From the NCBI GenBank assembly GCA_903908245.1, contig CAIVRE010000006.1, positions 85,951 through 149,950 on the forward strand: a DNA stretch of 64,000 nucleotides. The letters run 5' to 3'. Made by a program: the position numbers and the translations under genes. This document shows, piece by piece, positions 1 through 23,172 of the stretch; the first letter of the stretch is position 1; each line of letters begins with the position of its first letter. This DNA is from Candidatus Omnitrophota bacterium (lineage in GTDB: Bacteria; Omnitrophota; Gorgyraeia; Zapsychrales; Fredricksoniimonadaceae). Below the pieces are notes generated by a model that was given only the letters and a program-made list of their open reading frames with translations, was not told where the DNA came from and did not search any database.

Positions 1-844
1 GGAACCTTTCCAGCGCCGAAAAATATCTCTTTCCTGACGGCAGTTCCCTCAAAAAGCCCCCCTTCAAGTCCATCACATAAAAACGCTCGCGGACCTTTTC
101 CGGGAACGAGAGGAAAACCCAGCTCGGAAGGACCCTCCCGTCCGGAAGAACGACCATGTCCCAGGCACCGCCGGCAGGGCAGGAATACCCGCGGCCGATC
201 ACACCAATACAGCCTTGCCGGATCTCCCATGCGGTGATCCGGCGATACTGCTCAAGGAACACCTTGGCCGAGCGCTTGTCCCAATCTTCAAGAAATGCCG
301 GATGCACCTCGACCGAACGAAGCCCAAAAGAAGCCAACAACTTGACGTTTTCCTCCAAACGGCAAACCCCTGAAGGATGGACCGTCATTGTGGCCGTAAA
401 CGCTTTACGGGTACGCCGCACGGACTTCAATCCACGAAGAATATCAACATACCGGACCCCCGACCCCGGCCGATTGGCCAGGACCGTTTGTTCATCGCCG
501 TCGATACCCGCTTCGATATTAATACCCCGCCGGGCCATGAACGCCGCCCGTCGATCATCCATCAATGTCATATTCGTCTGAACGGACACATACCTCTTGG
601 GATATCGCCGCTGTATCGCCGCAACCATCTTTTTAAGCGCATCCCAGGCGGCTAACGGCTCCCCTCCTGAAATAATGAACTCGCCTTTTTGCACCGCCAT
701 CGCGAGCGCAGCCCGGAACACCTCAAAAGGCATCACTTTCCGTCCGGTCTTATATTTAAAAAAACAATACCCGCACCGGAGGTTACATTTGTCGGTGATG
801 AACAACCAGACATGATTCAATCCTGATGGGACCCGCTCTGCCAT
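1..844 (-). CDS. Radical SAM enzyme, anSME/SPASM-like, 5' part only (C-terminus lies beyond the left window edge). The frame is open from the start codon (cat at 842-844) down to position 2. It is absent from the ORF track because it is incomplete.
   Basis: Hand translation of the minus strand gives MAERVPSGLNHVWLFITDKCNLRCGYCFFKYKTGRKVMPFEVFRAALAMAVQKGEFIISGGEPLAAWDALKKMVAAIQRRY... This carries a CxxxCxxC radical SAM motif and a GGEPL motif. It is a paralog of ORF 1854-2882. There is a 5-nt gap to the stop of the upstream gene (850). Confidence 0.75.
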   Translation of the reverse strand, partial: MAERVPSGLNHVWLFITDKCNLRCGYCFFKYKTGRKVMPFEVFRAALAMAVQKGEFIISGGEPLAAWDALKKMVAAIQRRYPKRYVSVQTNMTLMDDRRAAFMARRGINIEAGIDGDEQTVLANRPGSGVRYVDILRGLKSVRRTRKAFTATMTVHPSGVCRLEENVKLLASFGLRSVEVHPAFLEDWDKRSAKVFLEQYRRITAWEIRQGCIGVIGRGYSCPAGGAWDMVVLPDGRVLPSWVFLSFPEKVRERFYVMDLKGGFLRELPSGKRYFSALERF

Positions 845-849
845 CACAC

Positions 850-1890
850 TCACAGGGACTCTCCACGCTGCCGGGCCATTTTCTTCCTGTTCATGGCCAG
901 GATCGTTCGTGCGACCTTCCTCTGCTCATCCACATGGATACACGCGCCACACGGTTCGAACATCTTCTGAAAATCGCCCCGCCGTCCTGCCATACGGATA
1001 CGCATGAACTCTTTTGAGAACCAAATGTCGTAAAGAGACCTTTTCTTTATATTCAGGACCGTCTTCTGCTGGACCGAACAACACCAGCCGACCCCTCCGC
1101 CAAGGTCATTCATCACAAAGAACCACCCTTCAAAACACGGGAACCGGCAGGAAGATCCCTGCTTTAGCTCCGGCGACAAGGCACCGGATCCCGGCCGGAT
1201 ATCCAGATCGTATGGATGAACATCCATCTTTTTGGCGATCAGCCCATCCGCGCCCAAATGCCGGATCAATGCCCGCATCCGGCCCTCAAGGCCCGCATTC
1301 AATCGATTGACCACAAAAACAATATGGATCCTGAATCCCGGTTTTCGCGCGTCCCGAAGCGCTGCCAACTTCCTGATATTCTCCGTTACCCGGACAAAAA
1401 AGTCCTGCCCCTGAAGCTCTTTATACAATTCCCGGTCGGGCGCGCTCAAATTAATGCGCACACTGTCCGCTTTAAGGACGTCCCGGCAAACCGCTGACGG
1501 AAAAGTCCCGTTGGATACGACCGCAACATCAAAAGGCTGCCGGCCCAGGATCGCCATCATATCGGCGAAACGAGGATGCAATGTGGGCTCTCCGTCGCCG
1601 GAAATATCCACTGAATCAACTTTCAGTCTTTTAAGGTCCCGGACAAGCTCTTTGAACTGGTCAAATGGAAGGTCCTTGCGCTTGCGTAAATGCCAGGGAT
1701 TCCCAGGGGCGTGCGCGCCGCAATACCGGCAGCGGAGAGTGCACCGATTAGTGATATTAAGCTTGGCCATCTGCGGGCCGATATAAACCTTTCCGTCACT
1801 GGCGCCGAGGACGCGCAACCCTCTCCTGTTCATTTTCTCTTTAATACTGATCTTCATGCCCGGCGTCTTTCTTTCAGGATCATCATCCAA
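850..1890 (-). CDS. Radical SAM enzyme with a C-terminal Cys-rich (SPASM/twitch-like) region. It is a paralog of 7279-8274 and 8290-9285.
   Basis: The motif ITNRCTLRCRYC is a CxxxCxxC cluster, followed by GDGEPTL. The C-terminus has CxxxxC...WCC...CGAC cysteines. It overlaps the next gene by 37 nt, which suggests an operon. Confidence 0.85.
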   Translation of the reverse strand: MDDDPERKTPGMKISIKEKMNRRGLRVLGASDGKVYIGPQMAKLNITNRCTLRCRYCGAHAPGNPWHLRKRKDLPFDQFKELVRDLKRLKVDSVDISGDGEPTLHPRFADMMAILGRQPFDVAVVSNGTFPSAVCRDVLKADSVRINLSAPDRELYKELQGQDFFVRVTENIRKLAALRDARKPGFRIHIVFVVNRLNAGLEGRMRALIRHLGADGLIAKKMDVHPYDLDIRPGSGALSPELKQGSSCRFPCFEGWFFVMNDLGGGVGWCCSVQQKTVLNIKKRSLYDIWFSKEFMRIRMAGRRGDFQKMFEPCGACIHVDEQRKVARTILAMNRKKMARQRGESL

Positions 1891-2882
1891 TGCATTTTTG
1901 TCAGGAACCTCATCAATGCGACGATCTGCGTGGTATTAATGTACTCCTTGCCCATGATCCTGTTGACCAGGTCAAAATTACAACAGACAAGGTCACGGTA
2001 TGTGACCCTCGTCCTGCGATGATGCAACGCAGAATAAGCCCTCTGATAGAACGCCAGCACCTCCGGCCTGAGATCCCCGGTCTTGAGCGCCCAAAGGCTC
2101 GACCGCGACCGCTGAGCCTCCGGCAAACAGAGGAATGCATCCCCGGCCAAAAGATGCCCCGGCGGATGCAGGCTCAGGTCCATGACCCCGGGATGAATGA
2201 ATTCCTGGTCCTCACTGGTTAAAAGGACCTGCCTCAGCGATGGATCGGCAATGACCATCTTATAATTCTCACGGAACTGTGCCACAGCCCCCGGCGTCCA
2301 GGGCATGAAGGCCGCAGGGGTAACATCAACAGAGCCCAGGCCGAGTGTCTTCAAAAAAGTCGCCTGGTGAAGCATGTCCCCCGAGGCTTCAGGATGGACC
2401 GTCATGGTACAGCCGCATTTAATACCGGCAGCCACACACAACCTGATATTCCTGACAAGTTTAACGTACCCGGCACTCTCCAGGCCGCAACGATGGCGCA
2501 CGGTCACATCCTTGTCCCCGTCAATACCGAACTCCAGGCTAACCCCGGATCGACGGATAAAAGCGATCCGTCCGGGCGTAAGCAAAGTCCCGTTCGTCTG
2601 TAAATGAATGTGCCGACCGGGAAAACGCCGCTGCAAAGTGGCCACCAGCCAGCGGAACTGGTCCCAGCAAAGCAATGGTTCTCCGCCACTGATAACAAAA
2701 GAACCAGGGCCGGAAGAAAGCCCCTGCATCAGATCAAGGGACCGGATGATCACCTCCCGTGGAAGGTCACGGGCCCTTTTGTCACGGAAATAACAATACG
2801 CACACCGGAGCGTGCAACGCTCCGTCAAATAAAAATACGCCGACCGGATATGAACCTTAGACTGCTCTTTCCCGACCATCAA
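1854..2882 (-). CDS. Radical SAM enzyme, anSME-like subfamily.
   Basis: Motifs LTERCTLRCAYCYF and SGGEPLL are present. It is a paralog of the partial ORF at 1-844. Confidence 0.85.
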   Translation of the reverse strand: MMVGKEQSKVHIRSAYFYLTERCTLRCAYCYFRDKRARDLPREVIIRSLDLMQGLSSGPGSFVISGGEPLLCWDQFRWLVATLQRRFPGRHIHLQTNGTLLTPGRIAFIRRSGVSLEFGIDGDKDVTVRHRCGLESAGYVKLVRNIRLCVAAGIKCGCTMTVHPEASGDMLHQATFLKTLGLGSVDVTPAAFMPWTPGAVAQFRENYKMVIADPSLRQVLLTSEDQEFIHPGVMDLSLHPPGHLLAGDAFLCLPEAQRSRSSLWALKTGDLRPEVLAFYQRAYSALHHRRTRVTYRDLVCCNFDLVNRIMGKEYINTTQIVALMRFLTKMHWMMILKERRRA

Positions 2883-4032
2883 TAAAATACCTTATTTTCC
2901 CGTTTGCCATCCTGGGGACCGCGCCATGGAACGCCTTTGCAACAACACACGGATCTATCCCGGCGACAAGCCGGAGAAGGCCCGTCAACTTTGGGCCAAC
3001 AGGCATATCGGCGGCCGGAATATTGACCAAAAGAGTGTCCTTGTATGTTGTGCTATCCTTTTTGATCTCAAAAAAGAAATCCGGATGCCCCAAAAGATCG
3101 TTGACCGTCCGGATCATCATGCTTTTGACGCCCACCACGCCATTCACAAGGACAGTATCCTCCGTTCTGGATAATACCTTCACCATGATCGCACCACGCC
3201 GCCGACAAAGCTCCACCCGATCGCCCAGGCGGTAACGGATAAAAGGCATGCAGGTATTTTCCAGGTCTGTCACAAGCAAAGCCCCGACCCCTTCATCGGC
3301 CGCGGTCCCGTCATCCCTGAGGACCTCAAAAAAAAGTCCGTCAGAGAACACGGACATATACGGATCTTCCGGCCTTCGGGTGATCGCGAACCCGGAAACC
3401 TCCATCGCCCCGTAATGATCATGGATCCGGACCTTCCCGATCCGTTCGATCCGTTCCCGATACGACGGCCACAACGGCTCTCCATTGACCACGCATTTTC
3501 TGATCGAATGCCTGGCCCCAAGCCTTGAAAAAAGGTCGAACAGCTGGTTGGTATAGGCATTCACTATCGCAGGACGCAAGGCCCGGATAAGGCTCACGGC
3601 TTCATCACATTTTTGCGGAGTGCTGATACCCCCTAAAGCAATGACCCCCGAACCAGCCGCTTTATAAGCCGCCTCCATCATACGTCCGCCGCTGTTCAAC
3701 TCGTAGGAACACAAATTAAGGCACACCTCCCCCGGCCCGGCCCCTATGCTGCGGTACATCCGGGCAAGCCGGCGAAGATGCATGTTATACGCCGCCCGGG
3801 AATGCACGATCAAAAGACGGGAACCGGTCGAACCGGATGTGGATGTGATATTGAACGCGGAAGGGATAAAACCCGCAGCGGCAAAGGCTTTCAGGTCCGC
3901 ACGCGCCATCACCGGAAGCCGAAGGATATCTTCTTTCTTCCTGAGTGGCAGTAAGACCTTCCGGTAGCCACGCACGCGCACCATAAAACCCGATACAAGC
4001 GCGGATATCTTTTTCAAGGCAAGGCTACTCAT
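2857..4032 (-). CDS. Adenylate-forming enzyme of the PaaK / coenzyme F390 synthetase family (AMP-binding).
   Basis: TSGSTG is a core adenylation motif. The length of ~390 aa is typical of PaaK-like ligases. It is in an operon with rSAM genes. Confidence 0.65.
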   Translation of the reverse strand: MSSLALKKISALVSGFMVRVRGYRKVLLPLRKKEDILRLPVMARADLKAFAAAGFIPSAFNITSTSGSTGSRLLIVHSRAAYNMHLRRLARMYRSIGAGPGEVCLNLCSYELNSGGRMMEAAYKAAGSGVIALGGISTPQKCDEAVSLIRALRPAIVNAYTNQLFDLFSRLGARHSIRKCVVNGEPLWPSYRERIERIGKVRIHDHYGAMEVSGFAITRRPEDPYMSVFSDGLFFEVLRDDGTAADEGVGALLVTDLENTCMPFIRYRLGDRVELCRRRGAIMVKVLSRTEDTVLVNGVVGVKSMMIRTVNDLLGHPDFFFEIKKDSTTYKDTLLVNIPAADMPVGPKLTGLLRLVAGIDPCVVAKAFHGAVPRMANGKIRYFIDGRERAV

Positions 4033-4958
4033 TAAAAGCCTCTCCGGATCTTTATGTCCGTTTTATCAGCGAACGCGGAACTGATACCGGTCAACGCCGG
4101 AACAGCGATCCGGTGCCGCCGGGCAATTTCCAGGAGCGCCCCGGTCATAAAACACATTTCCGTCGGACGGCCGGACATAACATCCGTATAGGTCGAGCCC
4201 ATATGACGGATCACTCCGTAACGGCCAAGGCGGATGCCATCCACCGCGCGCATGGGGTCAAAAGCAAGGCGGACCCCTTCCGCCGCCGCCAAACGCTTCC
4301 CTTCCAGGATAGCCCTGCGGGCCAGCCCATACACCGCCGCATCCTCCTTAAGGATATCATACCCGCGGCCGGTAATGACAGGAAGCGGGTTCATGACGGC
4401 ATTAAAAATAAGCTTCGCCCACACCGCACGCCGCGGATCCGCAACGGCGGCAGACCTGACCCCTGCCCTGGCGAACAGCGCGGCGATCTTTCTCGCCCCG
4501 GCCCCCCCCGCGAACACCTTCCCGCGAAAAGCGATCTCAACGCGCCCTGCCCCGGCCTCACGACAGGCAATGGTCGCAACCCCGCGGGAAATATCAGCAC
4601 TCCTGAAAAGATCCGTCGCCCAGGAAAGATCGAAGATCCCGTTCTGCGGGAAAAAAACATTCTTTGCCCTGGCATAACGCGCCGTCAGCTCCGCCGCGGC
4701 ACGCACCCCCGCGACCTTGGTCGTGATAATGATAAGGTCGAACAAACGCCCGGATAATTCCCGAGGGTGATCGACCACTTCCGCTCGCGCATGAAAGGCC
4801 TTCCGGCCCTCCTTCAAAAAGATCCCCCGGCGGCGAATGATACGGCGAGTCCTCTCCCCACGGTCATACACCGTAATGGCAGCGACCGATGACAACATCG
4901 CCGCCAAAGAACAACCAAGGGCCCCGCAGCCAACGATCAGGACATTCTTCTTTATCAT
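4032..4958 (-). CDS. 2-Dehydropantoate 2-reductase family (PanE/ApbA-like) NAD(P)-dependent oxidoreductase.
   Basis: The N-terminus has a Rossmann motif, LIVGCGALG. The C-terminus has STYTDVMSGRPTEM, which resembles the ketopantoate reductase signature STxQDxxxGRxTEID. Confidence 0.65.
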   Translation of the reverse strand: MIKKNVLIVGCGALGCSLAAMLSSVAAITVYDRGERTRRIIRRRGIFLKEGRKAFHARAEVVDHPRELSGRLFDLIIITTKVAGVRAAAELTARYARAKNVFFPQNGIFDLSWATDLFRSADISRGVATIACREAGAGRVEIAFRGKVFAGGAGARKIAALFARAGVRSAAVADPRRAVWAKLIFNAVMNPLPVITGRGYDILKEDAAVYGLARRAILEGKRLAAAEGVRLAFDPMRAVDGIRLGRYGVIRHMGSTYTDVMSGRPTEMCFMTGALLEIARRHRIAVPALTGISSAFADKTDIKIRRGF

Positions 4959-5917
4959 GACACCATAACTTTCAGCTCTGACAACACTTTTAATGCCCGC
5001 GTTCTGGCCTCAGCGCTCTTTAAATATTCATCGAGCTTCTTAAGCCGGCCCTGTGATCCCTTCGGATCCCAGAATCCCCTTTGGATCAATGTGCTCATCA
5101 ATGCCAAATGAGGATTATACCCCCGGGCCTTCCTGAAAAGATACATGCACGCATGAACGATCTCGCAGGAGGTCTCCTCCGACCTGAACTCCTCGGTCCG
5201 GGAGATACCGACCTCCTTCTTCAAGACACGGAATATCTCCGCTTCAGTGACCAAAAAGGTATTCAACGGGTAACAAACATCAACGGCCACTTTTCTCTTT
5301 TTTAAACGGGTCGCATCCATTGCCGCGATGAACTGCGCGATCACCGGCGTGGGAGGAGGGCCTCCGGTTTCCCAAAGCTGCGGATGCTCCAGGTCGAATT
5401 TGCCTGTCATGACCAAAGGGATCCCGCTTGCTCCTGCATGTCTCTCGATCACCAAAGGAAGCACCCTGGAACACACATCGCACGGCAGCCCTACGGAAGC
5501 GGAAAGGAACCCCTGACGAAAAGTCTGCCGGTACATCTTCCGGAACAAGCGTGCCTCATCAAGAACGACGTGGTCCATCCCCAAACGTCCGGTGACACGT
5601 TCCACATTCTTGAACGCCAGCGGCTCCATGAACCCGTTATCAACGGTCACCCCGAGAGCGCGAAGCTTGTATCTTTTCGACACCAGCCACGCCAGGTACG
5701 CGCTGTCTTTCCCCCCGCTCAAAGCCAGGACAACATGGTATTTCATGTCGCTTCGCCTAAGGCGTGCCAACCGCGCCTCAAGTTCCCCGCGCAGCTTTTC
5801 TCTCAACACGCCGACCTGTCTGGAAGACAAACGGATCATCTGACAACCCATATCCTTCGATCCCCGGATTAAACAGAACAACTGCACTTTGACCCCAAAG
5901 ACCGTAATAACAAGCAA
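4955..5917 (-). CDS. PP-loop (N-type) ATP pyrophosphatase, adenine-nucleotide alpha-hydrolase superfamily. The true start is probably internal, e.g. M at ~5851 or MKYHVV at ~5746.
   Basis: A SGGKDS PP-loop motif follows MKYHVVLAL. There is a 4-nt overlap with the downstream gene. Confidence 0.65.
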   Translation of the reverse strand: MLVITVFGVKVQLFCLIRGSKDMGCQMIRLSSRQVGVLREKLRGELEARLARLRRSDMKYHVVLALSGGKDSAYLAWLVSKRYKLRALGVTVDNGFMEPLAFKNVERVTGRLGMDHVVLDEARLFRKMYRQTFRQGFLSASVGLPCDVCSRVLPLVIERHAGASGIPLVMTGKFDLEHPQLWETGGPPPTPVIAQFIAAMDATRLKKRKVAVDVCYPLNTFLVTEAEIFRVLKKEVGISRTEEFRSEETSCEIVHACMYLFRKARGYNPHLALMSTLIQRGFWDPKGSQGRLKKLDEYLKSAEARTRALKVLSELKVMVS

Positions 5918-6002
5918 ATATCCTAACTATTTATATTTATATAATTATATCATATAATTAAAACATACAGCGTCGTATCACGATCGGCACCAGGACCATT
6001 GA
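5918..6002. promoter_or_regulatory. AT-rich divergent intergenic region. It is the likely bidirectional promoter region between the minus-strand operon (850-5917) and the plus-strand rSAM operon (6003-15007).
   Basis: The sequence tatttatatttatataattatatcatataattaaaa sits in otherwise ~58 % GC DNA, between divergently oriented genes. Confidence 0.4.
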
Positions 6003-7268
6003 ATGACAATGAAAAACGATCCCCGTTCTACCGCCAATATATTCCTGCCGCCCGTGACATTCTCGGCGTGCATGAATCACTGGACCATGCGCCTTTACAC
6101 CGCCTATGTTTATCTGGCACTGCGCGACAATGATCTGCGCGTACAGTTTTACGACCATCTCGACGACATCCCCGGCTTCGAAAAACACCTTCGATCGCAA
6201 ATAACAAAAAGCCCCCGCAGCAGGAACATCCATGGCATCGCCATGTTCCTGGGAAATAAAAAGAACGCGTTAAGGCTCATGCAACAGATCAGGGCCAAGG
6301 ACCCCCGCGGGCTGATCGTGGCCTTTGGCCCGACCGCCTCTTTTTTCCACCGGCAGATCCTGACCCGCGGCCTGGCCGATATTGTCATTACCGCAGACCC
6401 CGAGTTTGTTTTCCCGAAGCTCGTCCGGGCCGGAACAGATATCTCCACGGTCCCTAACCTGGCCCTTCTGCAACATGAAAAGATCATGAAAACCCGGCCA
6501 AAAACCTTTACCGACCTGGACTCCCTTCCTTTCGCCGGACAATATTTCTGTGATAAAGGACTGACGCCGGTCCCGGTCGTAACAGCCCGCGGATGTCCTT
6601 TCAGCTGTTCTTTCTGTGACCGCCCGCTCCTGTGGGGCGCACAAACACGCCTGCGGAGCGTTGATAATATTTTCGCCGAGATCCATTCCCTGGTAACCCG
6701 CTACAACCTCCCGCGGCTGTTCTTCGATGACGCCAATTTTATTCTCAATAAGGACCGGACCATCCATTTATGCCAACAGCTGACGAAACTGCCGAAACCC
6801 GTTTCCTGGGGCTGCACCGCCAGGGTTGATTGCGCCGACCCGAAAACCCTGCGCCTGATGCGATACGCCGGCTGCGAAACGGTTTATTTCGGGATCGAGT
6901 CCGGCGATGAAACGATCCTGCGGAATATAGGGAAGGAATACGGGCAAAAAGAGATCCTGCAGGCGGTTAAATGGACCCGGGACGCAGGCATAAAAGTGGG
7001 GATCTTCCTGACTGTCGGGAATCCTGGCGAATCCGGCCGATCACTGGTCAAAACGAAGAAACTTTTACGCGATCTGTACCCTTTTTCCGAACTCACGATC
7101 AACCCTCTGGTGGTGCTGCCCGGGACCCCCATCTATGCCCGATTCATCAAAGAAAAAAAGATCACCGAAGAAGCCTGTTTCGACAATGACACCCTGATGT
7201 TCTTCGATACCAAGGCCCAGGCCTACATGAAAGATATTGCCCAGTTGAGAAAGTTCTTTAAACAATGA
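6003..7268 (+). CDS. B12-binding-domain radical SAM enzyme (class-B-like).
   Basis: An N-terminal Rossmann-like B12-binding region precedes TARGCPFSCSFCDR, a CxxxCxxC cluster. The architecture is shared with 11803, 16455 and 17820. Confidence 0.85.
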   Translation: MTMKNDPRSTANIFLPPVTFSACMNHWTMRLYTAYVYLALRDNDLRVQFYDHLDDIPGFEKHLRSQITKSPRSRNIHGIAMFLGNKKNALRLMQQIRAKDPRGLIVAFGPTASFFHRQILTRGLADIVITADPEFVFPKLVRAGTDISTVPNLALLQHEKIMKTRPKTFTDLDSLPFAGQYFCDKGLTPVPVVTARGCPFSCSFCDRPLLWGAQTRLRSVDNIFAEIHSLVTRYNLPRLFFDDANFILNKDRTIHLCQQLTKLPKPVSWGCTARVDCADPKTLRLMRYAGCETVYFGIESGDETILRNIGKEYGQKEILQAVKWTRDAGIKVGIFLTVGNPGESGRSLVKTKKLLRDLYPFSELTINPLVVLPGTPIYARFIKEKKITEEACFDNDTLMFFDTKAQAYMKDIAQLRKFFKQ

Positions 7269-7278
7269 AAGACAACCG

Positions 7279-8274: not shown

Positions 8275-8289
8275 AATGAAAGACCGTCG

Positions 8290-9285: not shown

Positions 9286-9334
9286 CCAACAGATATGTAA
9301 ACATCCCTGTTTATGTTATTATGATCGATAAAAT

Positions 9335-10234: not shown

Positions 10235-10353
10235 AAGATGATGCCGCATATGTCCGGGCATGCCCGGTACCAGTAAAATTTATTCTGGAATTAGCTAAAA
10301 GTTCTGTGTAAAGTGGTCCATCGGAAACAATATCTCCTTGAGGCTGTTAAAGC

Positions 10354-11784: not shown

Positions 11785-11802
11785 TGGCCCCTTAACCTTT
11801 AT

Positions 11803-13122: not shown

Positions 13123-13592
13123 CCCAGGCCGCTTCCAGGATCTGCCTTGCTGCCCAAAGGCTGGCACAACACGCCGGGCAATGCCTTTTCGTGACCCTCG
13201 GCCACGGCGGGTCCCCCAGGGCGAGATATATGGGCGCTTTAAAGGTCGACAACGGAATGAAGGTATTCCTGGTCTGCCGGCCCGGATCGAACAAAGTGCG
13301 GGAGATCGCCCGGGACCCCCGCGCGCAGGTCGTCCTTGCGGATGAGCCCCGTCGCCGGGTGGTCACGCTCAACGGGAACGCTTATCTGGAACGCTCAAGG
13401 ACCGTCCGCAAGAAACTTTTTACCGCTACGGCCCCTTTGAAATTGTATCCCGCCTTTAATAACGATTTCGGGGTGATCCGTTTCATCCCTGAAACACTGG
13501 AATATCTGGACCTGGATATCAGGCTTGAACCCGTCATCATTGACCTGACAGGGAGGCGCCATTGCTCGCCCAAGACACTAAAAACTTCCTGA
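13119..13592 (+). CDS. Pyridoxamine 5'-phosphate oxidase-like FMN-binding split-barrel protein.
   Basis: Its size of 157 aa and its sequence pattern are typical of PNPOx-like small flavoproteins. There is an ATGA start/stop overlap with the upstream gene. Confidence 0.55.
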   Translation: MTQAASRICLAAQRLAQHAGQCLFVTLGHGGSPRARYMGALKVDNGMKVFLVCRPGSNKVREIARDPRAQVVLADEPRRRVVTLNGNAYLERSRTVRKKLFTATAPLKLYPAFNNDFGVIRFIPETLEYLDLDIRLEPVIIDLTGRRHCSPKTLKTS

Positions 13593-15007: not shown

Positions 15008-15027
15008 AGACCGCGTCGGAAAACCTT

Positions 15028-16458: not shown

Positions 16459-17813
16459 TGTCCATTCCCGGAGGAAAAATACTCGCGGCCCGCGCTGCGG
16501 AACGCCCGGAGCCAATGCTCCATCGAGCGCCCCTTGATGGCCGCCATATACGACGGGATCGCTTCCTCGTGGTCGCTTAACCAGTACGACTCGTCAAACC
16601 CCTCTTCCAGAGCCTGCTGATACAGCGGCGATCCAGGCATAATATACAGCGGAGAAACATCCACCACGCAAGAAGCCGGAAGCCGCTTTAAATTCTGAAA
16701 AGACTCTTTCAGGGTAACTTCTGTTTCTCCGGGGAAACCGATCATCAGGTGGACGCAAGGCCTTATCCCCGTTGACGCAACCAACGCCAAGTTCCGGATC
16801 GCCAGCCCCGGAGCATAGTTCTTCCCCGACGAACGCAGGATCCTGCGGGATAACGAATCCAGCCCGAAGAAAATACCCCGGCAGCCGGCCTTCTTCATCC
16901 CAAGCAAAAGCTCCTCATCGACAAGGTCGACCCTTGTTGTACATACCCAGGAAAAACAGAACCGCTCGCGGATGATCGCCGAACACAGCCGCAGGGCATA
17001 TTCCCTGTTAAGCGTAAAATTCATATCATGGAAATAAACAAAATCCCGGCAGCCTTCAGGGATCAGGTAAAGCTGTGCGATGACCTGATCGATGTTTTTT
17101 TCTGAAACCTTCCGCTGCCAAAGCCCGACGGTACTGCAGAACCGGCAAGCGAACGGACACCCCCGATGCGTTTCAACAGGGATCCCGTCGTGCATCAGGA
17201 TCGCGGCGTCCGGGTCTTTCAGCGGTTTGACCGGAAAAGCCTTAAGATCGATCAGCGGTAATTCGTCAAGACCGGTCAACGACGGACGGGATGCGCTGCG
17301 GTGAGGCTTCCCCCCGGACCGGAACGTTATCCCCGCCACAGACGAAAGGTCCCGGCCCGCATCGAGCGCCCTCAACAGCGCCTCAAAGGAATCCTCGCCT
17401 TCTCCCCTGACAACATAATCAACACACGGATACGAAGACAGTATCTGTCCGTCCAGGAAAGTGGCATGGATCCCGCCCATGATCACCGTGACCGCCGGGT
17501 CGACTTCCTTGACGAGCCGGGCAAGCTCGACACAGGCAAAACGGTTGAACGATTGGCATGAAATACCAATGACCGAAGGCCGCTCCCGCCGGATATACCG
17601 GGCCAGCGTCCCTGGCGAATAGTCGGTACCGCAATAGATCCGGCAGCGCGCCTTCAACCGCTCCTGAAGACAGGACGCTATTGACGCCAGCCCCAGGGAG
17701 AGCCGCAGCGGGGCTTCAAAAGGGTCCCGAAGGCGCGGGTTCCCCAAATGCCGTCCGGGTGGCAGAAAAAAAAGAATGTTAAAGCTGTTTATCCGGGATC
17801 CCATGATCATCAA
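16455..17813 (-). CDS. B12-binding-domain radical SAM enzyme.
   Basis: HRGCPFACRFC is present. An N-terminal B12-binding-like region is present. Confidence 0.85.
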   Translation of the reverse strand: MMIMGSRINSFNILFFLPPGRHLGNPRLRDPFEAPLRLSLGLASIASCLQERLKARCRIYCGTDYSPGTLARYIRRERPSVIGISCQSFNRFACVELARLVKEVDPAVTVIMGGIHATFLDGQILSSYPCVDYVVRGEGEDSFEALLRALDAGRDLSSVAGITFRSGGKPHRSASRPSLTGLDELPLIDLKAFPVKPLKDPDAAILMHDGIPVETHRGCPFACRFCSTVGLWQRKVSEKNIDQVIAQLYLIPEGCRDFVYFHDMNFTLNREYALRLCSAIIRERFCFSWVCTTRVDLVDEELLLGMKKAGCRGIFFGLDSLSRRILRSSGKNYAPGLAIRNLALVASTGIRPCVHLMIGFPGETEVTLKESFQNLKRLPASCVVDVSPLYIMPGSPLYQQALEEGFDESYWLSDHEEAIPSYMAAIKGRSMEHWLRAFRSAGREYFSSGNGQ

Positions 17814-17819
17814 AACCCG

Positions 17820-19133
17820 CTAACCGTTCCGCGCGGTAACCCGCTCGAATTTCTTCACCCATTTCCACTGCTCCTGCGCCGGGATCGACCCGGTGTAATA
17901 CGGCAGCGCCTCCGCATGATCCTCAAGCCAGTACGCTTCATCGAACCCCTCCCCAAGGGCGACGTCATATAACGGCGCCCCGGGCACGATCTCCAGCGGA
18001 TGCACCGCGAGAGTGATCCCGGGATGAAGCTTCCTGCACCCGATCAACGATTCCATCAGCGTTTCTTTGGTCTCCTGCGGAAATCCTACAATAAGGTTGA
18101 AATGAACCCTTATCCCCATCTCCGCTGTCAAATTGGCATTCGCGATAGCCACCTCGGGATCATACTCCTTATGGATCGAACGCAAGACAGTGCCGGAAAG
18201 CGACTCCACTCCGAACAGGATCATTTTGCAGCCCGCTTTCTTCATGATCTTCAAAAGCGGCTTGTCGATCAGATGGACCCTGGTCTGACAGCCCCAATGC
18301 AGATCCATGCCACTGGCAATGACCGCGGAACAAAATGCGCGCGTATACGCTTTATCCAACGTAAAGGTCAGATCCGGGAAAATAATATGCTTTCGATACG
18401 CTTCAGGAATAAGGCGGATCTGTTCTATGGCGCGCTCGACGCTTCTCTTGACGGTCTTCCGCCCCCAAAACCCGACGGCACTGCAAAAAAGACACACAAA
18501 AGGGCATCCGCGCGTTATTTCCACCGGTAATCCGGACAAAATATCTTCTTTTTCCCAGGATCGGCCCAAAGGCTGCAATTGATATTTGGAATAATCGATC
18601 AACGGGAATTCGTCAAGGCTCGCCACCCTGGCCCGAGGCGCTGTACGCATGACTTTCCCTGAATGAAGAAAAGAAATACCCCGGATCTTGCGCAGATCCT
18701 TTCCCTGCCGAAGGGCGTCGAGAAGATCAAGAAAAGTTATCTCCCCCTCGCCGCGAACAATATAATCCACATCCGGACAGGTGCGAAGGATCTGCCGGTC
18801 CAAACACGTCGCGTGAGCCCCCCCCAGGATCACCGTCACGGAAGGATCCAGGGCCTTCATCAATCGGGCCAGCTCCAGGCAGGCGAACCGATTATAAGAT
18901 ACGCAGGATAAACCGATCACGGAAGGCCGATTCGTCCGGAGAAATTCCTTTAACGCCGCGATGGAATAATCTCCCGATGAATACGGGATACAGGTTATAT
19001 CCGAATGATGCTCAACATATGCCGCGATCGATGCTATCCCAAGATCAATATGAAATGGCGGAACAACGGTCTCGTCGAACTTAAAGGACGGCAGCAGATG
19101 CCTGTCAGGAGGATTGAACAATACGACCCGCAT
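17820..19133 (-). CDS. B12-binding-domain radical SAM enzyme.
   Basis: TRGCPFVCLFC is present. It is a paralog of 16455-17813. Confidence 0.85.
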   Translation of the reverse strand: MRVVLFNPPDRHLLPSFKFDETVVPPFHIDLGIASIAAYVEHHSDITCIPYSSGDYSIAALKEFLRTNRPSVIGLSCVSYNRFACLELARLMKALDPSVTVILGGAHATCLDRQILRTCPDVDYIVRGEGEITFLDLLDALRQGKDLRKIRGISFLHSGKVMRTAPRARVASLDEFPLIDYSKYQLQPLGRSWEKEDILSGLPVEITRGCPFVCLFCSAVGFWGRKTVKRSVERAIEQIRLIPEAYRKHIIFPDLTFTLDKAYTRAFCSAVIASGMDLHWGCQTRVHLIDKPLLKIMKKAGCKMILFGVESLSGTVLRSIHKEYDPEVAIANANLTAEMGIRVHFNLIVGFPQETKETLMESLIGCRKLHPGITLAVHPLEIVPGAPLYDVALGEGFDEAYWLEDHAEALPYYTGSIPAQEQWKWVKKFERVTARNG

Positions 19134-20330
19134 TTAAATGGCCTTCCTTACTGCAGACGCCCCGCCGAACCACGCCCCCGGGATCTTGACCCCGGCCATA
19201 TCCTTACGCAACATCCTGACAAGCGCAGCGGCCATCCCCGAGGCTGAAAGCTGTTTGAACAAAAGGACTTCGCTGCGGATATGGTCGGACAATAAACGCG
19301 CCCGGGCCGGTTGTTCCCGGAAGTTCAGCGCCCCGCCATAACCTTCAAACGGAATGACCACCGCCCGCTTGGCATGCCTCAGCAAACTTAACGACGTATG
19401 ATACGGAGCCGGACAGATGCAGACATCACTCTCCGCAATAAGCTGGTCATAGCGGTCCGTCCACCTTACCAGACGGCCATTGGGCACTTTCTTCTTTGCC
19501 ATCAGTCCCTGGAACATCCGCCATTCCCCGTCAGTTGTCGACGGGCCGGCAACAAAGATATATTCATAGCCATCGCCTGAAATATCGCTGGCTTTAATGG
19601 CTGCCGCAATGATCTGCGGATAATACGCCCCGCCGCCGCGGACAACCGCCACCCGGACAACTCCCTTGCGGACAAATCCCGCCTTGCCTTCGCCCGGCTT
19701 GATCGCCGGAGCCTCAGGCACAAGATAGCCTGTAAAAACAACCTTGCGCTCGTTCTTCTTAAAGAATTCACGATACGCGCGCCGGCCAATTCCGGCAGGA
19801 TAAAGGCCGGACATATAATCCATTTCGATCCGCGGGCACAAAATAAAGATACGCTGATAAAGGCTCAGGATGAAGTCCAGCGAACGCCCTCGTCGGGCGG
19901 TCAACAGCGGGTATCCGGCAATGGAGAAGAGCGGGACTTTCTGCGAAGATAATGCCATTAAGGAAGGCAACAACTCGTCACGGCACTCGCCGCGGCCCAA
20001 CGGAAAAAATTCTGTAACAAAGACACCCGGCTTTGCCTGTTGAACAATATCCAGGCATTCCTTCGCCCGGATGGCAGAAGAAAAAGGATCTGCGGCCGCC
20101 GGATACCTGAAATTCGCCCGGCTGTTAAATGGCCGGCTCAAGGAATGCACCACCCCCGACCGGTCAAGGCTGGCCGCCGGCTGGTCACAGCCGCCCTGAA
20201 TAAAAAAGAAGTTCCTTTGAGGGAACTTCTCTTGATATATCCCGGCGAACGCCGCTACACGCGACGTATGCCCAAAACATTCGTAATGAGTATAATAAAC
20301 CCCGATCGTCTTGCGCAAGGGTGATCCATT
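19134..20330 (-). CDS. GT-B fold glycosyltransferase (GT1/MGT/GT28-like). The start is uncertain; the track ORF reaches 20432, but that extension overlaps the peptide gene in another frame, so a TTG start near 20330 is proposed.
   Basis: The N-terminus has KTIGVYYTHYECFGHTSRV, resembling the GT-B N-terminal glycine/His motif. The C-terminus has ESDVCICPAPYHTSLSLLRHAKRAVVIPF, typical of the GT-B donor-binding domain. Confidence 0.5.
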   Translation of the reverse strand, partial: NGSPLRKTIGVYYTHYECFGHTSRVAAFAGIYQEKFPQRNFFFIQGGCDQPAASLDRSGVVHSLSRPFNSRANFRYPAAADPFSSAIRAKECLDIVQQAKPGVFVTEFFPLGRGECRDELLPSLMALSSQKVPLFSIAGYPLLTARRGRSLDFILSLYQRIFILCPRIEMDYMSGLYPAGIGRRAYREFFKKNERKVVFTGYLVPEAPAIKPGEGKAGFVRKGVVRVAVVRGGGAYYPQIIAAAIKASDISGDGYEYIFVAGPSTTDGEWRMFQGLMAKKKVPNGRLVRWTDRYDQLIAESDVCICPAPYHTSLSLLRHAKRAVVIPFEGYGGALNFREQPARARLLSDHIRSEVLLFKQLSASGMAAALVRMLRKDMAGVKIPGAWFGGASAVRKAI

Positions 20331-20340
20331 GGTCAACACT

Positions 20341-20595
20341 TCAATAAGAAGTATGTGACGCCGTATTCGTATGATCAAAACAACCCGCGGTCGTCTGAAG
20401 GCTGTTCGCGTGGTTCGTATGGTCTCCCGCACTCGCGTTAAAAGCCGCGCCCAGCGCCGCCATTCCGGCTACCGTGGACAATCCCACCTTAAGGATCGTC
20501 TCCTTGCTGACAAACCCGTCCTCATCCATCACAAACCCCTTAAGGCTTTTAACAACATCATCCTTCTTAAGAAGTCTTTTTTTCTTGAGCGCCAT
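20341..20595 (-). CDS. Candidate RiPP precursor peptide of 84 aa with a C-terminal His-Xaa-(Ser/Thr/Asn)-rich core.
   Basis: The sequence is MALKKKRLLKKDDVVKSLKGFVMDEDGFVSKETILKVGLSTVAGMAALGAAFNASAGDHTNHANSLQTTAGCFDHTNTASHTSY. A strong Shine-Dalgarno, GGAAGGAAAG, lies 4 nt upstream of the ATG. It overlaps the 3' end of the SPASM rSAM gene by 29 nt, on the same strand. Residue use is atypical for an enzyme: K-rich N-terminus, hydrophobic middle, H/T/N/S-rich tail. Confidence 0.5.
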   Translation of the reverse strand: MALKKKRLLKKDDVVKSLKGFVMDEDGFVSKETILKVGLSTVAGMAALGAAFNASAGDHTNHANSLQTTAGCFDHTNTASHTSY

Positions 20596-21988
20596 AACGC
20601 TTTCCTTCCGTCCAGCGGTTGAAGATATCGGCTTGGTCCCCGCCTTCGATCAGGCGGCTGAAAATATGCTCGTACTGAAACGCCTGTATCTTCTGCATTG
20701 ACGAACAGGCGGTTTTTGGAACGATGTTCTTCTGCTCGGCATAATTGACCACCGGGCAATACCCCATCCACGGGCTGAACACGGAACTGTAATGCCAAAG
20801 ATTCACGCAGGAAGCCTGCAACAGATTGAGCAGGTTTTCCTTATTAAGTATAGCATCAAATTCCTCATTCACAATATTCCCCAGCTTGAACATTTCCTCC
20901 CCCAGCATCCGCGCCTCGTCACACGGATAGGCACTGCCGTCCGGCATATACACCATCGTGGAACGGCCGGCCCCGCATGGGCTCATCATATCCACATAAC
21001 CCGGGTCTCTTTTGGCCAGGACCTTGGTAAGGATGACCCGCGCAACACGTTCGCTCAAGTGCCGCCCCTGACGGTTGATCTTGATGATATGCTCAAATCC
21101 GCGTTGATAGAAATCACAAAATTCTTCCGGTGTGACCCCGATATCCCGCCAGGAACAACGCGCCGATCCCATGCAATTCGCAGGCCGAAGCGATATCTCT
21201 TCCTGCCCCAGGCTCACATACTCATCAATGATCCGTTCAGGATGCGCCAGGGAATGTTTGGTGATCGTGGGCAACAGCGTGACTTTCCGGCCAAATTTAT
21301 CCTTGAACCGCCTGATCCTGGCAACCACCTCGCTGTAAGTCCCGCGGCCCTCTATGTCCACCCGATTACGGTCATGAATGTCTTTCGGGCCATCCAGCGA
21401 AGAACAGACATCCACATCGTGTTTGGCCAGGAATGCCATTTTTTTGTCATCCAGGAGCATCAAATTGGTCACCAGCACCAGCTGAAGTTTCTTGCCCAGT
21501 GTGTTGAACTTGCGGGCATTCACGACCAGAAGCTCCAGCACCGGCCAATTGAGCACCGGCTCACCGCCCTGGAATTCCAGGACGACCGATGGATTGGCGA
21601 CATCAAAAAGATATTTCAGCACGCGCCCGGCCACCTCGATCGTCATATCCTGCGATAAAGTGCCTCCTTCTGCCTGGCAATAGGAACACCGCAGATTACA
21701 GCGTTTTGTCAGCACGGCAATATGCAATGAGGTGTCTGTAAAGAGATTGGCGTTCAGGGACCGGAACCCGGTAATGACATCCGCGATGTTCGACTGATCC
21801 ACGACGATCCCGCGCGTGCGCAGGCGTTGGGCAAGGGCATCGGAAGACTTAAGGCGCAAGGCATTCAGCTGCCGGAATTCGGCAGGGGTCAGCGCATCCC
21901 AGCACCCCATCATATTGCTGACAAGGTATTTCCCGTTGATCTTCGCGGAATTGAACGGCAGGATAACAATATCATTTTCGTTCTTCAT
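20567..21988 (-). CDS. Radical SAM/SPASM enzyme (anSME-like) with a ~100-aa N-terminal extension, possibly a peptide-recognition (RRE-like) domain. It is the candidate maturase for the adjacent peptide.
   Basis: LTKRCNLRCSYCQAEGG is present. The C-terminus has multiple Cys (C..C...CSSMQ), consistent with SPASM. It is 473 aa. Confidence 0.85.
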   Translation of the reverse strand: MKNENDIVILPFNSAKINGKYLVSNMMGCWDALTPAEFRQLNALRLKSSDALAQRLRTRGIVVDQSNIADVITGFRSLNANLFTDTSLHIAVLTKRCNLRCSYCQAEGGTLSQDMTIEVAGRVLKYLFDVANPSVVLEFQGGEPVLNWPVLELLVVNARKFNTLGKKLQLVLVTNLMLLDDKKMAFLAKHDVDVCSSLDGPKDIHDRNRVDIEGRGTYSEVVARIRRFKDKFGRKVTLLPTITKHSLAHPERIIDEYVSLGQEEISLRPANCMGSARCSWRDIGVTPEEFCDFYQRGFEHIIKINRQGRHLSERVARVILTKVLAKRDPGYVDMMSPCGAGRSTMVYMPDGSAYPCDEARMLGEEMFKLGNIVNEEFDAILNKENLLNLLQASCVNLWHYSSVFSPWMGYCPVVNYAEQKNIVPKTACSSMQKIQAFQYEHIFSRLIEGGDQADIFNRWTEGKRYGAQEKKTS

Positions 21989-21997
21989 AATGGCCGA

Positions 21998-22732
21998 TCA
22001 AGGATTGTCCGGTAATGGTGTGGTGAACGGCCCCTTGCAAAAGGCTTTAATATCGGCATCCTCGATCCCGTCGCAATAATCCTTATCTTCTGCATGACGG
22101 GCAAACCTGAAATAGGCAAGATCCGATTCCAGCTGCTTCGCATCCGCCCCTTCGAACAGCATCTTGCAATCAACGACATTCTGATAATTCACCGCTGTCC
22201 AGGAAAGAGGATTATCGCCCACCATCTCGCGCACAAATTGCTGGCACTGCCGCGGGCCTTTCACATACCCCCGCGCAAAAGAGATCAAACGGATATCCCA
22301 ATCCCGCTCTGATTTAGGATAAAAAACCTGCACTTTCGCGTGCAAACGGTCAAGAAGATCCCGGCTCGGCTGCTGCAATAACGAACAAAAAATGGATTCC
22401 AGTTCATTAAGGTCCTTGGACGGCTTGCAATTTTCGGCAGCAAGGGCCTTTTTTATCCGAAGGTACTGATTTTCCTGCGAAGGAAAACCCGCGGGACAAT
22501 TCTTTTGAGAAAAACAGGACAGGTCCTCGATCTCTTTCGAGTCGACTATGTCAAACTTGTACCCCAGGCGGATCGCCTTGTGCTCCCACTCAATCCGCTC
22601 CTCCAAAGTAGGCACGGCCGGCGCTTCAGTCCTCTCGACATCTTTGGCCAACAAAGAAGGCGTAAACCCCGTTGCGCAAAATAAAACAAGGACACCGGTA
22701 AGAATAACGGAAACTTTCCCCCAAGAGATCAT
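21998..22732 (-). CDS. Hypothetical exported Cys-containing protein (signal peptide, 8 Cys).
   Basis: The N-terminus is MISWGKVSVILTGVLVLFCATGF, then a hydrophilic domain. There is a 4-nt overlap with the upstream ORF. Confidence 0.45.
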   Translation of the reverse strand: MISWGKVSVILTGVLVLFCATGFTPSLLAKDVERTEAPAVPTLEERIEWEHKAIRLGYKFDIVDSKEIEDLSCFSQKNCPAGFPSQENQYLRIKKALAAENCKPSKDLNELESIFCSLLQQPSRDLLDRLHAKVQVFYPKSERDWDIRLISFARGYVKGPRQCQQFVREMVGDNPLSWTAVNYQNVVDCKMLFEGADAKQLESDLAYFRFARHAEDKDYCDGIEDADIKAFCKGPFTTPLPDNP

Positions 22733-23172
22733 TTCTTCCCCTTCTTGCCGGTCTTGCCGGTCTTGCTGGTCTTGCTGGTCTTGACTTCCTCAGCCTCAAG
22801 TTCTTTAATAAGATCTTCGATCTCCTTGTCTTCCGCCTCTTTCACCATCGTCGGAGATGCGGAAAAGAGAGCGCGCTGCAACAGCAGCTTGAGCCCTTCG
22901 GCATTGGCCTTGAGGCTGGAAAAATAATGGGCATAATTCAGCAGTTCCTGCGAAAAGTCCAGCGCCAGTTGATCAAAGTCTTTCTCTTTCCCTTTAGGCG
23001 AAAGCCACACATCCACCGTTCCTTTTTTTCCTTCATCCAGGCGCACATACGCGCGGTCCATGAAAACATACCCCGCGGAATGAATGGACTGTAACGGATA
23101 AACATTGGTATTCACCGGCAATTTGACCCAACCATCGGCCTTCTGGAAAACTTTCGCCATATACATCTCCAA
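22729..23172 (-). CDS. Hypothetical 147-aa protein with a C-terminal K/T/S/G low-complexity tail.
   Basis: The tail ends ...EAEEVKTSKTSKTGKTGKKGKK and is encoded by 9-nt direct repeats at 22745-22800. Internally it has ELLNYAHYF, a weak resemblance to the LLNDYxLRE signature I recall for HxsD; this is unverified. Confidence 0.45.
   Translation of the reverse strand: MEMYMAKVFQKADGWVKLPVNTNVYPLQSIHSAGYVFMDRAYVRLDEGKKGTVDVWLSPKGKEKDFDQLALDFSQELLNYAHYFSSLKANAEGLKLLLQRALFSASPTMVKEAEDKEIEDLIKELEAEEVKTSKTSKTGKTGKKGKK

Follow-up and report, generated by a model that had tools for sequence, protein, structure and literature searches.

The stretch of DNA analyzed here (hereafter the window) comprises 64,000 nt of a Candidatus Omnitrophota bacterium (GenBank assembly GCA_903908245.1, contig CAIVRE010000006.1, positions 85,951 to 149,950 of the forward strand), and its first 23 kb hold most of a dense island of radical S-adenosylmethionine (rSAM) enzymes that includes a maturase of the His-Xaa-Ser (Hxs) peptide family. 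Open reading frames (ORFs) of the window were listed, translated and scanned against Pfam and NCBIfam, and rSAM genes were counted where PF04055 exceeded its gathering score. The locus was extended by 9 kb beyond the window start using ENA ERZ18626762 scaffold_13 (229 kb; locus label L008). Thirteen rSAM ORFs were found within positions 1–23172, all with PF04055 above the gathering score and a CxxxCxxC motif, which agrees with the count given in the original prediction, made from the letters of the window alone. That prediction also held that the cluster was cut by the window edge, and the source contig does continue leftward, with two further rSAM genes (15 in total), up to glmU. The island thus comprises ∼30 genes over roughly 30–32 kb, half of them rSAM, flanked by the housekeeping gene glmU on the left and by a response regulator, a PilZ protein and hcp on the right, with an HxsD-like gene (23172) forming its right end. 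No rSAM gene was called in the remaining ∼40 kb of the window, and the clustering is therefore not background.

The genes are arranged in three operons (genes are referred to below by their lower window coordinate). The Hxs operon (15028–23172, - strand) encodes an HxsD-like protein, a secreted 244-aa protein, HxsB, an 84-aa precursor peptide, a GT-B glycosyltransferase, two B12-binding rSAMs and one HemN-like rSAM, packed with gene overlaps or gaps of ≤29 nt. The rightward (+) operon carries an A24-like peptidase gene between rSAMs 6003, 7279 and 8290 and rSAMs 10354, 11803 and 13562. The leftward (-) operon of 11 genes combines five rSAMs with adenylating, reductase, PP-loop, aminotransferase and deacetylase-like enzymes; outside the window it continues, in order, with the rest of rSAM340, a DegT aminotransferase, a 383-aa rSAM-SPASM, a 328-aa rSAM (rSAM328), a PP-loop/Asn-synthase-like gene and DUF2334. 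Beyond DUF2334, on the opposite strand, lie genes for an APH-like kinase, another GT-B of 406 aa and a Cys-rich protein of 528 aa, after which comes a GlmU-type nucleoside triphosphate transferase. The 4-nt start/stop overlaps noted in the original prediction are real at five sites (850/853, 1854/1857, 4955/4958, 13119/13122 and 22729/22732). An AT-rich divergent intergenic region (5918..6002) separates the leftward and rightward operons. Promoter-like sites were seen at 5930–5958 (+; a 10/12 sigma-70-like match, by consensus only) and at 23234–23207, ahead of the HxsD-like gene. GC content is even across the window, and no riboswitch was found in the cluster using Rfam.

The gene at 20567..21988 (-) encodes a 473-aa rSAM/SPASM peptide maturase that passes the HxsB equivalog model TIGR03978 (372.1 bits, cut-off 370), covers model positions 1–466 of 466 and has an N-terminal extension of roughly 90 aa. 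Its relatives form >100 clusters at 50–87% identity; homologues are labelled HxsB, and every organism-named relative comes from a Candidatus Omnitrophica/Omnitrophota metagenome-assembled genome (MAG). The first gene of the operon (22729..23172, -; 147 aa) has HxsD as its sole NCBIfam match (TIGR03976, 27.8 bits vs a cut-off of 50) and reads ELLNYAHYF where the HxsD motif has LLNDYxLRE (LYW being the other HxsD motif); its orthologues at 84–88% identity carry the precomputed HxsD domain PF27806. Together with the HxsA3-like peptide described below, the HxsB equivalog and the HxsD-like gene make the island an expanded variant of a named family, which refines the earlier statement that the gene combination was not recognized as any described pathway. 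HxsC (TIGR03977, cut-off 267.9 bits) was not found: the best cluster rSAMs score 41–47 bits, over the N-terminal core only. In its place, the gene adjoining hxsB (21998..22732, -) encodes a secreted, Cys-containing, non-rSAM protein of 244 aa with an N-terminal signal-like helix.

Using an HxsB alignment, a scan of GTDB species genomes returned about 20 Omnitrophota loci (these and other loci are cited below by an L label). Counterparts of the secreted 244-aa protein lie beside HxsB or the peptide in L011 (38% identical) and in L012, L013, L016, L020 and L039 (20–23%); the protein itself has no Pfam or NCBIfam match, a homologue search returned it alone, and its single-sequence AlphaFold model was unusable (predicted local distance difference test, pLDDT, 43.6). 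The cytoplasmic GT-B glycosyltransferase of the Hxs operon (19134..20318, -; ∼394 aa with an inferred start) scores 20.5 bits on PF04101 and is 30% identical to its paralogue GT406, which passes that model at 42 bits. GT-B counterparts at 39–52% identity directly follow the peptide gene or a gene resembling that of the 244-aa protein at nine loci.

The precursor candidate (20341..20595, -) is an 84-aa peptide whose sole NCBIfam match is HxsA3 (NF038309, 25 bits vs a cut-off of 65). It consists of a Lys-rich N-terminus, an invariant DEDG-FVSKE motif, one hydrophobic helix and the core GDHTNHANSLQTTAGCFDHTNTASHTSY, 28 residues rich in His, Thr and Asn that include two Asp and neither Lys nor Arg. 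Among 18 aligned peptides, the motif (F/L)x(K/R)DEDG-FVSKE is nearly invariant, and G27, G38 (in the helix), N64 and C72 are invariant; the core shows an H-[ST]-N motif, the one invariant Cys and a C-terminal H-T-N-x-x-T-H-T-S-Y with a conserved final Tyr. Orthologues follow HxsB in every Omnitrophota locus that continues past HxsB with the exception of L025, and also in the divergent L006, so that the conservation of this small ORF, on which the original prediction had staked its case, was borne out. Scores of the Omnitrophota orthologues on the HxsA3 model range from 15 to 50 bits, with HxsA3 always the top match. A HMMER scan of 1.8 billion representative proteins recovered 53 related clusters, all small peptides but for one spurious repeat protein; that protein (P0258, 1444 aa, 13 matching stretches) was considered as a precursor array and rejected as unrelated. 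The 84-aa peptide did not match HxsA (TIGR03979) and is too short to hold a peptidoglycan-binding domain.

In its architecture the precursor resembles a class III (pilin-type) signal peptide substrate. Flp-type class III signals end in Gly and have the motif G/XXXXEY with the helix right after it; in the putative leader here, the Gly (G27) never varies, most sequences have E or D at position +5 and the helix begins at about +7. Cleavage after G27 is predicted to leave ∼57 residues, about the size of a Flp pilin. A prepilin-type cleavage at an upstream site of the window peptide, between KG and F, was rejected, as that Gly is not conserved in the orthologues.

The likely processing enzyme is encoded at 9335..10234 (+), a FlaK-like A24-family GxGD aspartyl intramembrane peptidase of 299 aa (PF01478 23.3 bits, just under the cut-off of 26.5). 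Two residues, D26 (FFDITRQKI) and D86 (GGDAKLF), are invariant among 11 A24-like homologues, and the profile built from these 11 has FlaK (3S0X, E 1.4e-7) as its sole solved match, with both Asp aligned to the catalytic Asp motifs of FlaK. By a hidden Markov model of the family, a member lies no more than 10 kb from HxsB at 13 of 16 Omnitrophota loci that have enough downstream sequence, at 6 loci of other phyla (DPANN archaea, Firmicutes and others) with HxsA3/A4-type peptides, and at 0 of 53 more distant HxsB-like loci. Two of the Firmicutes loci (L032 and L037) have bona fide HxsA3 peptides (108.6 bits in L032) and the gene order HxsD-A24-rSAM-HxsB-X-HxsA3. Given this association with HxsA3 loci and the alignment of both FlaK Asp motifs, the A24-like protein is very likely a GxGD aspartyl membrane protease that is active and devoted to HxsA3-type Hxs systems, and it is proposed here as the leader peptidase of the precursor. 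A further class III (prepilin-type) signal-like N-terminus, MLLKNKG followed by QSVLEYMLLASIIMVGII, was seen on the 528-aa Cys-rich protein, which has no family match, lies ∼7.1–8.7 kb left of the window start (L008 18973–20559, -) and has a homologue in L011 (13554–14951, -). It adjoins glmU at the left border of the island in both genomes; its N-terminus matched none of the Pfam Flp, TadE and class III signal models, and it may be a second substrate of the A24-like peptidase or a mere neighbor.

The 15 rSAMs fall into six families: HxsB, SPASM-bearing, SPASM-less, B12-type, HemN-like, and one represented only left of the window. The SPASM family has four paralogues, of which one (383 aa) lies left of the window and three within it: an enzyme of 335 aa (850..1857, -), 34–39% identical to the others in the window, and the tandem pair 331a (7279..8274, +) and 331b (8290..9285, +), which are 58% identical to each other. 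The original assignment to a SPASM-type set was right for ORFs 850, 7279, 8290 and 20567, in all of which PF13186 was detected beside PF04055, and was not borne out for ORFs 1 and 1854, which lack a detectable SPASM domain and form a separate family, 33% identical to each other. The first of these, rSAM340 (1..853, -; PF04055 63 bits; CNLRCGYC motif), is cut by the window edge; in full it has 340 aa, with the C-terminal 57 aa outside the window (L008 11005–12027), and on the source contig it is followed, with a 4-nt overlap, by the DegT aminotransferase gene. It is 34% identical to an rSAM of L006 that likewise adjoins a DegT gene, and the best matches of the DegT protein are sugar aminotransferases of the LegC, PseC and WecE types. 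The second, rSAM341 (1854..2879, -; 341 aa), scores 79 bits on PF04055. Two assemblies of the locus (L002/L009, Logan ERR4193360, and L001/L008, ENA) differ in gene calls within this set, with 316 vs 331 aa for 331b and 273 vs 341 aa for rSAM341, which suggests strain variants, assembly differences or differing calls inside the cluster.

Four rSAMs are of the B12 type, one fewer than had been predicted. An N-terminal B12-binding domain joined to an rSAM core, the criterion for class B enzymes, is clear in three of them, with PF02310 at 68–74 bits: 11803..13122 (+; 439 aa, 73.7 bits), 16455..17813 (-; 452 aa, 70 bits) and 17820..19133 (-; 437 aa, 68.5 bits), the last two being 47% identical. 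The fourth, 6003..7268 (+; 421 aa; PF04055 69 bits), has a divergent cobalamin domain (PF02310 only 16.7 bits) and is B12-type through paralogy only, at 28–30% identity to the other three; its counterparts adjoin the A24-like gene in L014 and L016. A lipid-modification role for the B12-rSAMs (Tes/Grs-like or ladderane-type) was considered and dropped, with scores of 27–118 bits against cut-offs of 360–450 and no lipid genes.

All three predicted HemN-like enzymes were upheld, with weak HemN_C matches. They are 10354..11784 (+; 476 aa; PF04055 80.6 bits), 13562..15007 (+; 481 aa; PF04055 80 bits, HemN_C 23.1 bits), which is 37–38% identical to its counterparts in L006 and L007, and the last gene of the Hxs operon, 15028..16515 (-; PF04055 73.6 bits), a 495-aa ORF that overlaps the stop of the upstream B12-rSAM and has its likely start Met at 16461. 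The three are 34–36% identical among themselves and contain the GGGTP second-SAM motif. Their best scores on the HemN, HemW, HemZ and ChuW equivalogs are 104–148 bits against cut-offs of 205–400, and they are thus not housekeeping enzymes; ORF 10354 in particular, a class C-type enzyme, falls below every HemN/HemW cut-off. This ORF has a distinctive NFLRFLT N-terminus and a C-terminal extension, and only ∼4 full-length relatives, at 33–34% identity, were found among 5.8 billion proteins. A metagenome scan using the HemN-like alignment keyed on generic HemN core motifs and recovered only ordinary HemN/HemW relatives (25–36% identity over the core) and no new members; as a negative control, 80 ordinary HemN/HemW loci from metagenomes had no Hxs or A24 neighbors. 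More broadly, the island rSAMs score far under the NCBIfam cut-offs for HemN, HemW, MoaA and similar families, as expected from the original view that they are not housekeeping enzymes. PDB searches with the GT-B, SPASM, B12 and HemN-like enzymes gave superfamily-level matches only (PqqE; AprD4, TokK and CysS; HemN and NocN). PqqE was the sole PDB sequence match of 331b (E 2e-4), and AprD4, TokK and CysS were the nearest solved relatives of ORF 17820.

The non-rSAM genes listed in the original prediction (PaaK-like, PanE-like, PP-loop, PNPOx-like, A24-like, GT-B and the small peptide) are all present. The leftward operon begins with a 298-aa PP-loop ATP pyrophosphatase-like protein (4955..5851, -), which has weak PF02540 and PF03054 matches and a WbuX-like N-terminus (TIGR03573, 68 bits over residues 40–172). 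It is followed by a 308-aa PanE/ApbA-like NAD(P)H ketoreductase (4032..4958, -; PF02558 and PF08546), with counterparts beside HxsB in L014, L016 and L039 and another in L007 (36% identical), and by a 391-aa PaaK/F390-synthetase-like adenylating enzyme (2857..4032, -; PF00501 33.3 bits; PaaK TIGR02155 66 bits, far under cut-off), 46% and 28% identical to its counterparts in L007 and L006. The rightward operon includes a small flavoprotein of the PNPOx-like (flavin mononucleotide/F420-type) class (13119..13592, +; 157 aa; PF01243 39.2 bits).

Comparison with other loci separated a common Omnitrophota core, consisting of HxsD, HxsB, the peptide, GT-B and the A24-like peptidase and usually also the secreted protein, from variable accessory modules (B12-rSAM with PanE-like; rSAM-SPASM with rSAM328 and DUF2334; DegT; HemN-like). 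Accessory families were found beside HxsB in L012, L014, L016, L017, L021, L024, L028 and L039, and L007 joins HemN-like, PanE-like and PaaK-like genes. The gene combination recurs in the divergent contig L006 (HxsB 53% identical), which has 7–8 rSAMs and, by BLASTP, representatives of almost all families of the window island: the peptide (40%), the A24-like peptidase, two GT-Bs, a B12-rSAM, an rSAM340 next to DegT (43%), HemN-like (34–37%) and PaaK-like enzymes, two rSAM-SPASMs, rSAM328 and DUF2334. Closer relatives, L010 (HxsB 87% identical) and L011 (67%), share the order hcp-PilZ-response regulator-HxsD-X-HxsB-peptide. In L011 the island is limited to one extra rSAM-SPASM, a GT-B (52% identical), a glycosyltransferase fusion of 730 aa and the Cys-rich protein with the class III-like signal, and its slot ends at the same glmU-prs-L25-pth group as in the window genome. 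Since L011 occupies this slot with 2 rSAMs, the slot has expanded from 2 to 15 rSAMs in the window genome.

Two other arrangements were observed in the course of this comparison. In L012 (GCA_030688425.1, 4476–9275), a second HxsD-like gene is followed by three rSAMs (a MiaB-like enzyme of 381 aa, a SPASM enzyme of 516 aa and a 490-aa ORF) directly upstream of HxsD-HxsB-peptide, another form of system expansion. In L030, a Nanoarchaeota MAG, a 1678-aa ORF with B12-rSAM similarity (8130–13184, +) lies downstream of an archaeal A24-like gene, HxsD, HxsB, an HxsA3-like peptide and two rSAM-SPASMs, and would be an unusually large rSAM fusion.

We favor, at a probability of roughly 0.6, a hyper-expanded Hxs-type pathway for a peptide made on the ribosome and modified after translation (RiPP), in which one pilin-like precursor would be tailored in the cytoplasm, probably glycosylated, inserted into the membrane and relieved of its leader by the A24-like peptidase. 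HxsD and HxsB would recognize the leader (...KDEDGFVSKE...) and begin modifying the C-terminal core (H-x-N ... C-x-x-H-T-N-x-x-T-H-T-S-Y). The SPASM-type enzymes may introduce cross-links or oxidize Ser/Thr, the B12- and HemN-like enzymes could add one-carbon units to the core, and the conserved rSAM340-DegT pair may turn an alcohol into an amine, a conversion for which BtrN/BtrS provide an analogue. The GT-B enzymes would attach a sugar that the sugar-type accessory enzymes build or modify, and the PaaK-like, PanE-like, PP-loop, kinase-like and DUF2334 enzymes might act on the peptide carboxylate or on the sugar. The single helix of the peptide would then insert it into the inner membrane, with the N-terminus on the inside and the core on the outside, and the A24 aspartyl peptidase would cut the Lys-rich leader at the invariant G27, between G27 and F28, as with class III (pilin-type) signal peptides. 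What is expected to remain, in the periplasm or at the surface, is a heavily tailored, His-rich and pilin-like peptide of ∼57 residues, with an envelope function, metal binding, phage exclusion and host contact as candidate roles; we infer both its chemistry and its biological role.

Several observations weigh against this pathway, at least in its fullest form. Foremost is L011, where an equally complex precursor occurs with only 2 rSAMs and no A24-like gene in the locus; by this comparison, the 13 extra rSAMs of the window genome are unneeded for the basic product and some may act elsewhere. For the heavily tailored product of the original prediction, action of all the enzymes on it is accordingly no more than a possibility, given the 2 rSAMs of L011 and the sugar or small-molecule types of many accessory genes. 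Only one such precursor ORF was found in the ∼74 kb read, for 15 rSAMs, and none of the accessory rSAMs has an N-terminal extension usable as a peptide-recognition domain. The HxsD-like protein and the peptide are under their NCBIfam cut-offs, and HxsC is absent from the island. The acidic residue at +5 is not universal, none of the 18 peptides matched Flp_Fap or another Pfam pilin family at E up to 10, and no Tad/Cpa or type IV pilus assembly genes were found in the gene lists of the window, its extensions, L006, L011 and L012. Owing to the missing Pfam pilin match, the likeness to pilins stays architectural and does not amount to family membership. The chief argument for some accessory enzymes working off the peptide backbone is L011.

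The strongest alternative takes that argument further and holds that the island is composite, with the Hxs operon as the peptide system and the other two operons serving a different substrate, such as an amino sugar, a glycan or another small molecule of the envelope. The sugar and small-molecule character of DegT, the WbuX-like PP-loop protein, DUF2334, the APH-like kinase and the second GT-B would suit it, as would the L011 core working with 2 rSAMs, the accessory content that differs between loci and the accessory rSAMs without a recognizable peptide-binding extension. It is weakened by the Hxs-specific A24-like peptidase gene, which lies midway in the second operon with rSAM genes on both sides, and by the B12- and HemN-like rSAMs inside the Hxs operon itself. 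Moreover, the accessory families travel with HxsB in at least nine other loci, with L006 orthologues 34–58% identical, and the rare HemN-like subfamily was encountered only in such contexts. We consider a composite island a possible but distinctly less probable account than the single hyper-expanded peptide pathway.

A second alternative follows from the canonical HXS system (HxsD-HxsB-HxsC-HxsA; TIGR03976–03979), which has been characterized as an anti-phage system with 99.7% of its examples in Pseudomonadota (Li et al. 2026, PMC13128918). There, HxsA is an exported 214-aa effector whose N-terminal processing depends on HxsB, HxsC and HxsD, and it carries a +8 Da modification (+C/-4H) on an SHRSS motif, with HxsC as the proposed installer (PMC13128918). 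The Omnitrophota island shares with it the HxsB-family maturase, an HxsD-like first gene and a His-x-Ser/Thr/Asn substrate that would likewise be exported and N-terminally processed; unlike it, the island lacks HxsC, adds the secreted 244-aa protein, GT-Bs, the A24 peptidase and 14 further rSAMs, and sits in a conserved slot of an Omnitrophota host. By analogy with periplasmic defence by HXS (PMC13128918), an exported His-rich peptide could block phage DNA entry in the periplasm, with the extra enzymes diversifying the effector, and the homologous HxsB and HxsD and the His-Xaa-Ser-type substrate speak for this. We regard it as unlikely. The canonical module has four genes (D-B-C-A), and both HxsC and the peptidoglycan-binding domain are missing here; the core is not basic (two Asp, no Lys or Arg), so that electrostatic capture of DNA is improbable; the chromosomal slot is conserved and common across Omnitrophota, unlike patchy mobile defence islands; and PADLOC yields only generic viperin or rSAM similarity.

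Somewhat less probable still is a small peptide-derived cofactor or metallophore of the mycofactocin/pyrroloquinoline quinone kind, for which the C-terminal residues (..C..HTN..THTSY) would be cross-linked, trimmed out and glycosylated and the rest discarded. Conservation is complete or almost complete for the C-terminal Tyr, the two H-[TS]-N motifs and one Cys, and the best named matches of the SPASM enzymes include PqqE, the mycofactocin maturase and a metalloenzyme maturase; all of these matches are far under the family cut-offs. The mycofactocin pathway, like the island, has a flavoprotein, a glycosyltransferase and a small chaperone-like protein. In the island, however, neither a dependent oxidoreductase nor a dedicated soluble peptidase for trimming was identified, and the conserved transmembrane helix with its membrane peptidase partner points to peptide export rather than to a cytoplasmic cofactor. 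Lastly, a chance accumulation of housekeeping rSAMs (HemW, MoaA, methylthiotransferases and the like), conceivable in that Omnitrophota and other anaerobes encode many rSAMs and all classes here belong to very large superfamilies, is effectively refuted, as no ORF reaches a housekeeping equivalog cut-off and HxsB alone passes any, ∼32 kb hold 15 rSAMs and the adjoining 40 kb hold none, the genes are organized in tight operons and their co-occurrence is kept in divergent genomes.

Within the Hxs family, the single-precursor pathway favored here is closest to the HxsA3-type loci (NF038309; L032 and L037), which share a Lys-rich N-terminus, an acidic-Gly motif, a hydrophobic helix, a His-rich repeat core, often with a C-terminal Ser-Tyr, and all three partners HxsD, HxsB and the FlaK-like A24 peptidase. 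They differ in that the Omnitrophota peptides score 15–50 bits against the cut-off of 65 and have a core of H-T-N...C...HTNxxTHTSY in place of long HxS runs, and in that the Omnitrophota loci lack the second rSAM beside HxsB and gain GT-B and a large accessory set. The searchable literature reports no function for HxsA3-type systems. As in class III signal-peptide systems (FlaK, TadV/CpaA, PilD), a GxGD peptidase is encoded with a small substrate that has a charged leader and an invariant Gly; unlike in class III and Tad systems, no family relation to Flp or TadE was detected and no assembly genes lie nearby. The searchable literature contains no description of a pilin-type substrate tailored by rSAMs.

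The precursor next to SPASM, B12 and HemN-like rSAMs, with a conserved leader and a more variable core, also recalls multi-rSAM RiPPs (polytheonamide/proteusins, thiopeptide C-methylations). These differ from the island, which has no NHLP/Nif11 leader and no epimerase/dehydratase set and has sugar-type enzymes, a membrane peptidase and 15 rSAMs. The original prediction named proteusins and His-Xaa-Ser systems as the nearest analogies: the former is unsupported because an NHLP or Nif11 leader was not found on the precursor (its sole NCBIfam match at E up to 1 is HxsA3), and the latter turned out to be membership and not analogy. To our knowledge, characterized multi-rSAM clusters have one to three rSAMs and none comes near 15. 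The HxsB, HxsD and HxsA3 NCBIfam models and the characterized canonical system were already known; the Omnitrophota island is an unusually large, undescribed variant. The searchable literature yielded no account of an Omnitrophota Hxs variant, of rSAM peptide maturation coupled to an A24 peptidase or of a comparably large cluster.

Enzymes of the rSAM superfamily carry out some of the hardest chemistry in peptide maturation, and 15 of them (four B12-type, three HemN-like) around one precursor would be rich ground for finding new reactions with His, Thr, Asn, Ser and Tyr residues. If all were to act on one core, the product would be the most heavily rSAM-modified ribosomal peptide known. With the present loci the Hxs family gains a variant of different structure, widespread among Omnitrophota and present in DPANN archaea and Firmicutes as well. 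N-terminal processing in the HxsA3-type variant seems to be performed by a dedicated prepilin-type peptidase, which suggests that RiPP maturation may be linked to class III signal-peptide export, an idea open to testing. Members of Omnitrophota are uncultured bacteria of very small size that probably depend on hosts, and so sizeable and conserved a commitment to an exported, tailored peptide offers a clue to the biology of their envelope. More tentatively, and against our own expectation, HxsA3-type precursors at large might be unrecognized rSAM-tailored, glycosylated, pilin-like peptides, the 14 extra rSAMs here converging on one 28-residue core to give a metal-binding or host-contact structure at the surface or in the periplasm.

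A few features of the window lie outside the island or concern the window as a whole. GC skew is negative in all 2-kb bins of positions 1–64000 (-0.06 to -0.20) and cumulative skew drops monotonically, so that the window falls entirely within a single replichore and shows neither an origin nor a terminus signal. The sole RNA gene detected in the window is a tRNA-Arg(CCG) at 36135–36208 (+). Four same-strand genes at 46822–52926 (+) encode an unknown protein of 560 aa, a fusion of MaoC dehydratase and short-chain dehydrogenase/reductase (554 aa), an MBOAT acyltransferase (478 aa) and a GDSL-like protein (436 aa); the group resembles a module for acylating a surface polymer or lipid, with no apparent relation to the rSAM island. 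Just beyond the right border of the island, between the PilZ gene and the end of hcp, an inverted repeat of 34 nt (24006–24039 / 24060–24093; 91% complementary, 20-nt spacer) overlaps the hcp stop codon with its second arm and is probably a terminator or regulatory hairpin.

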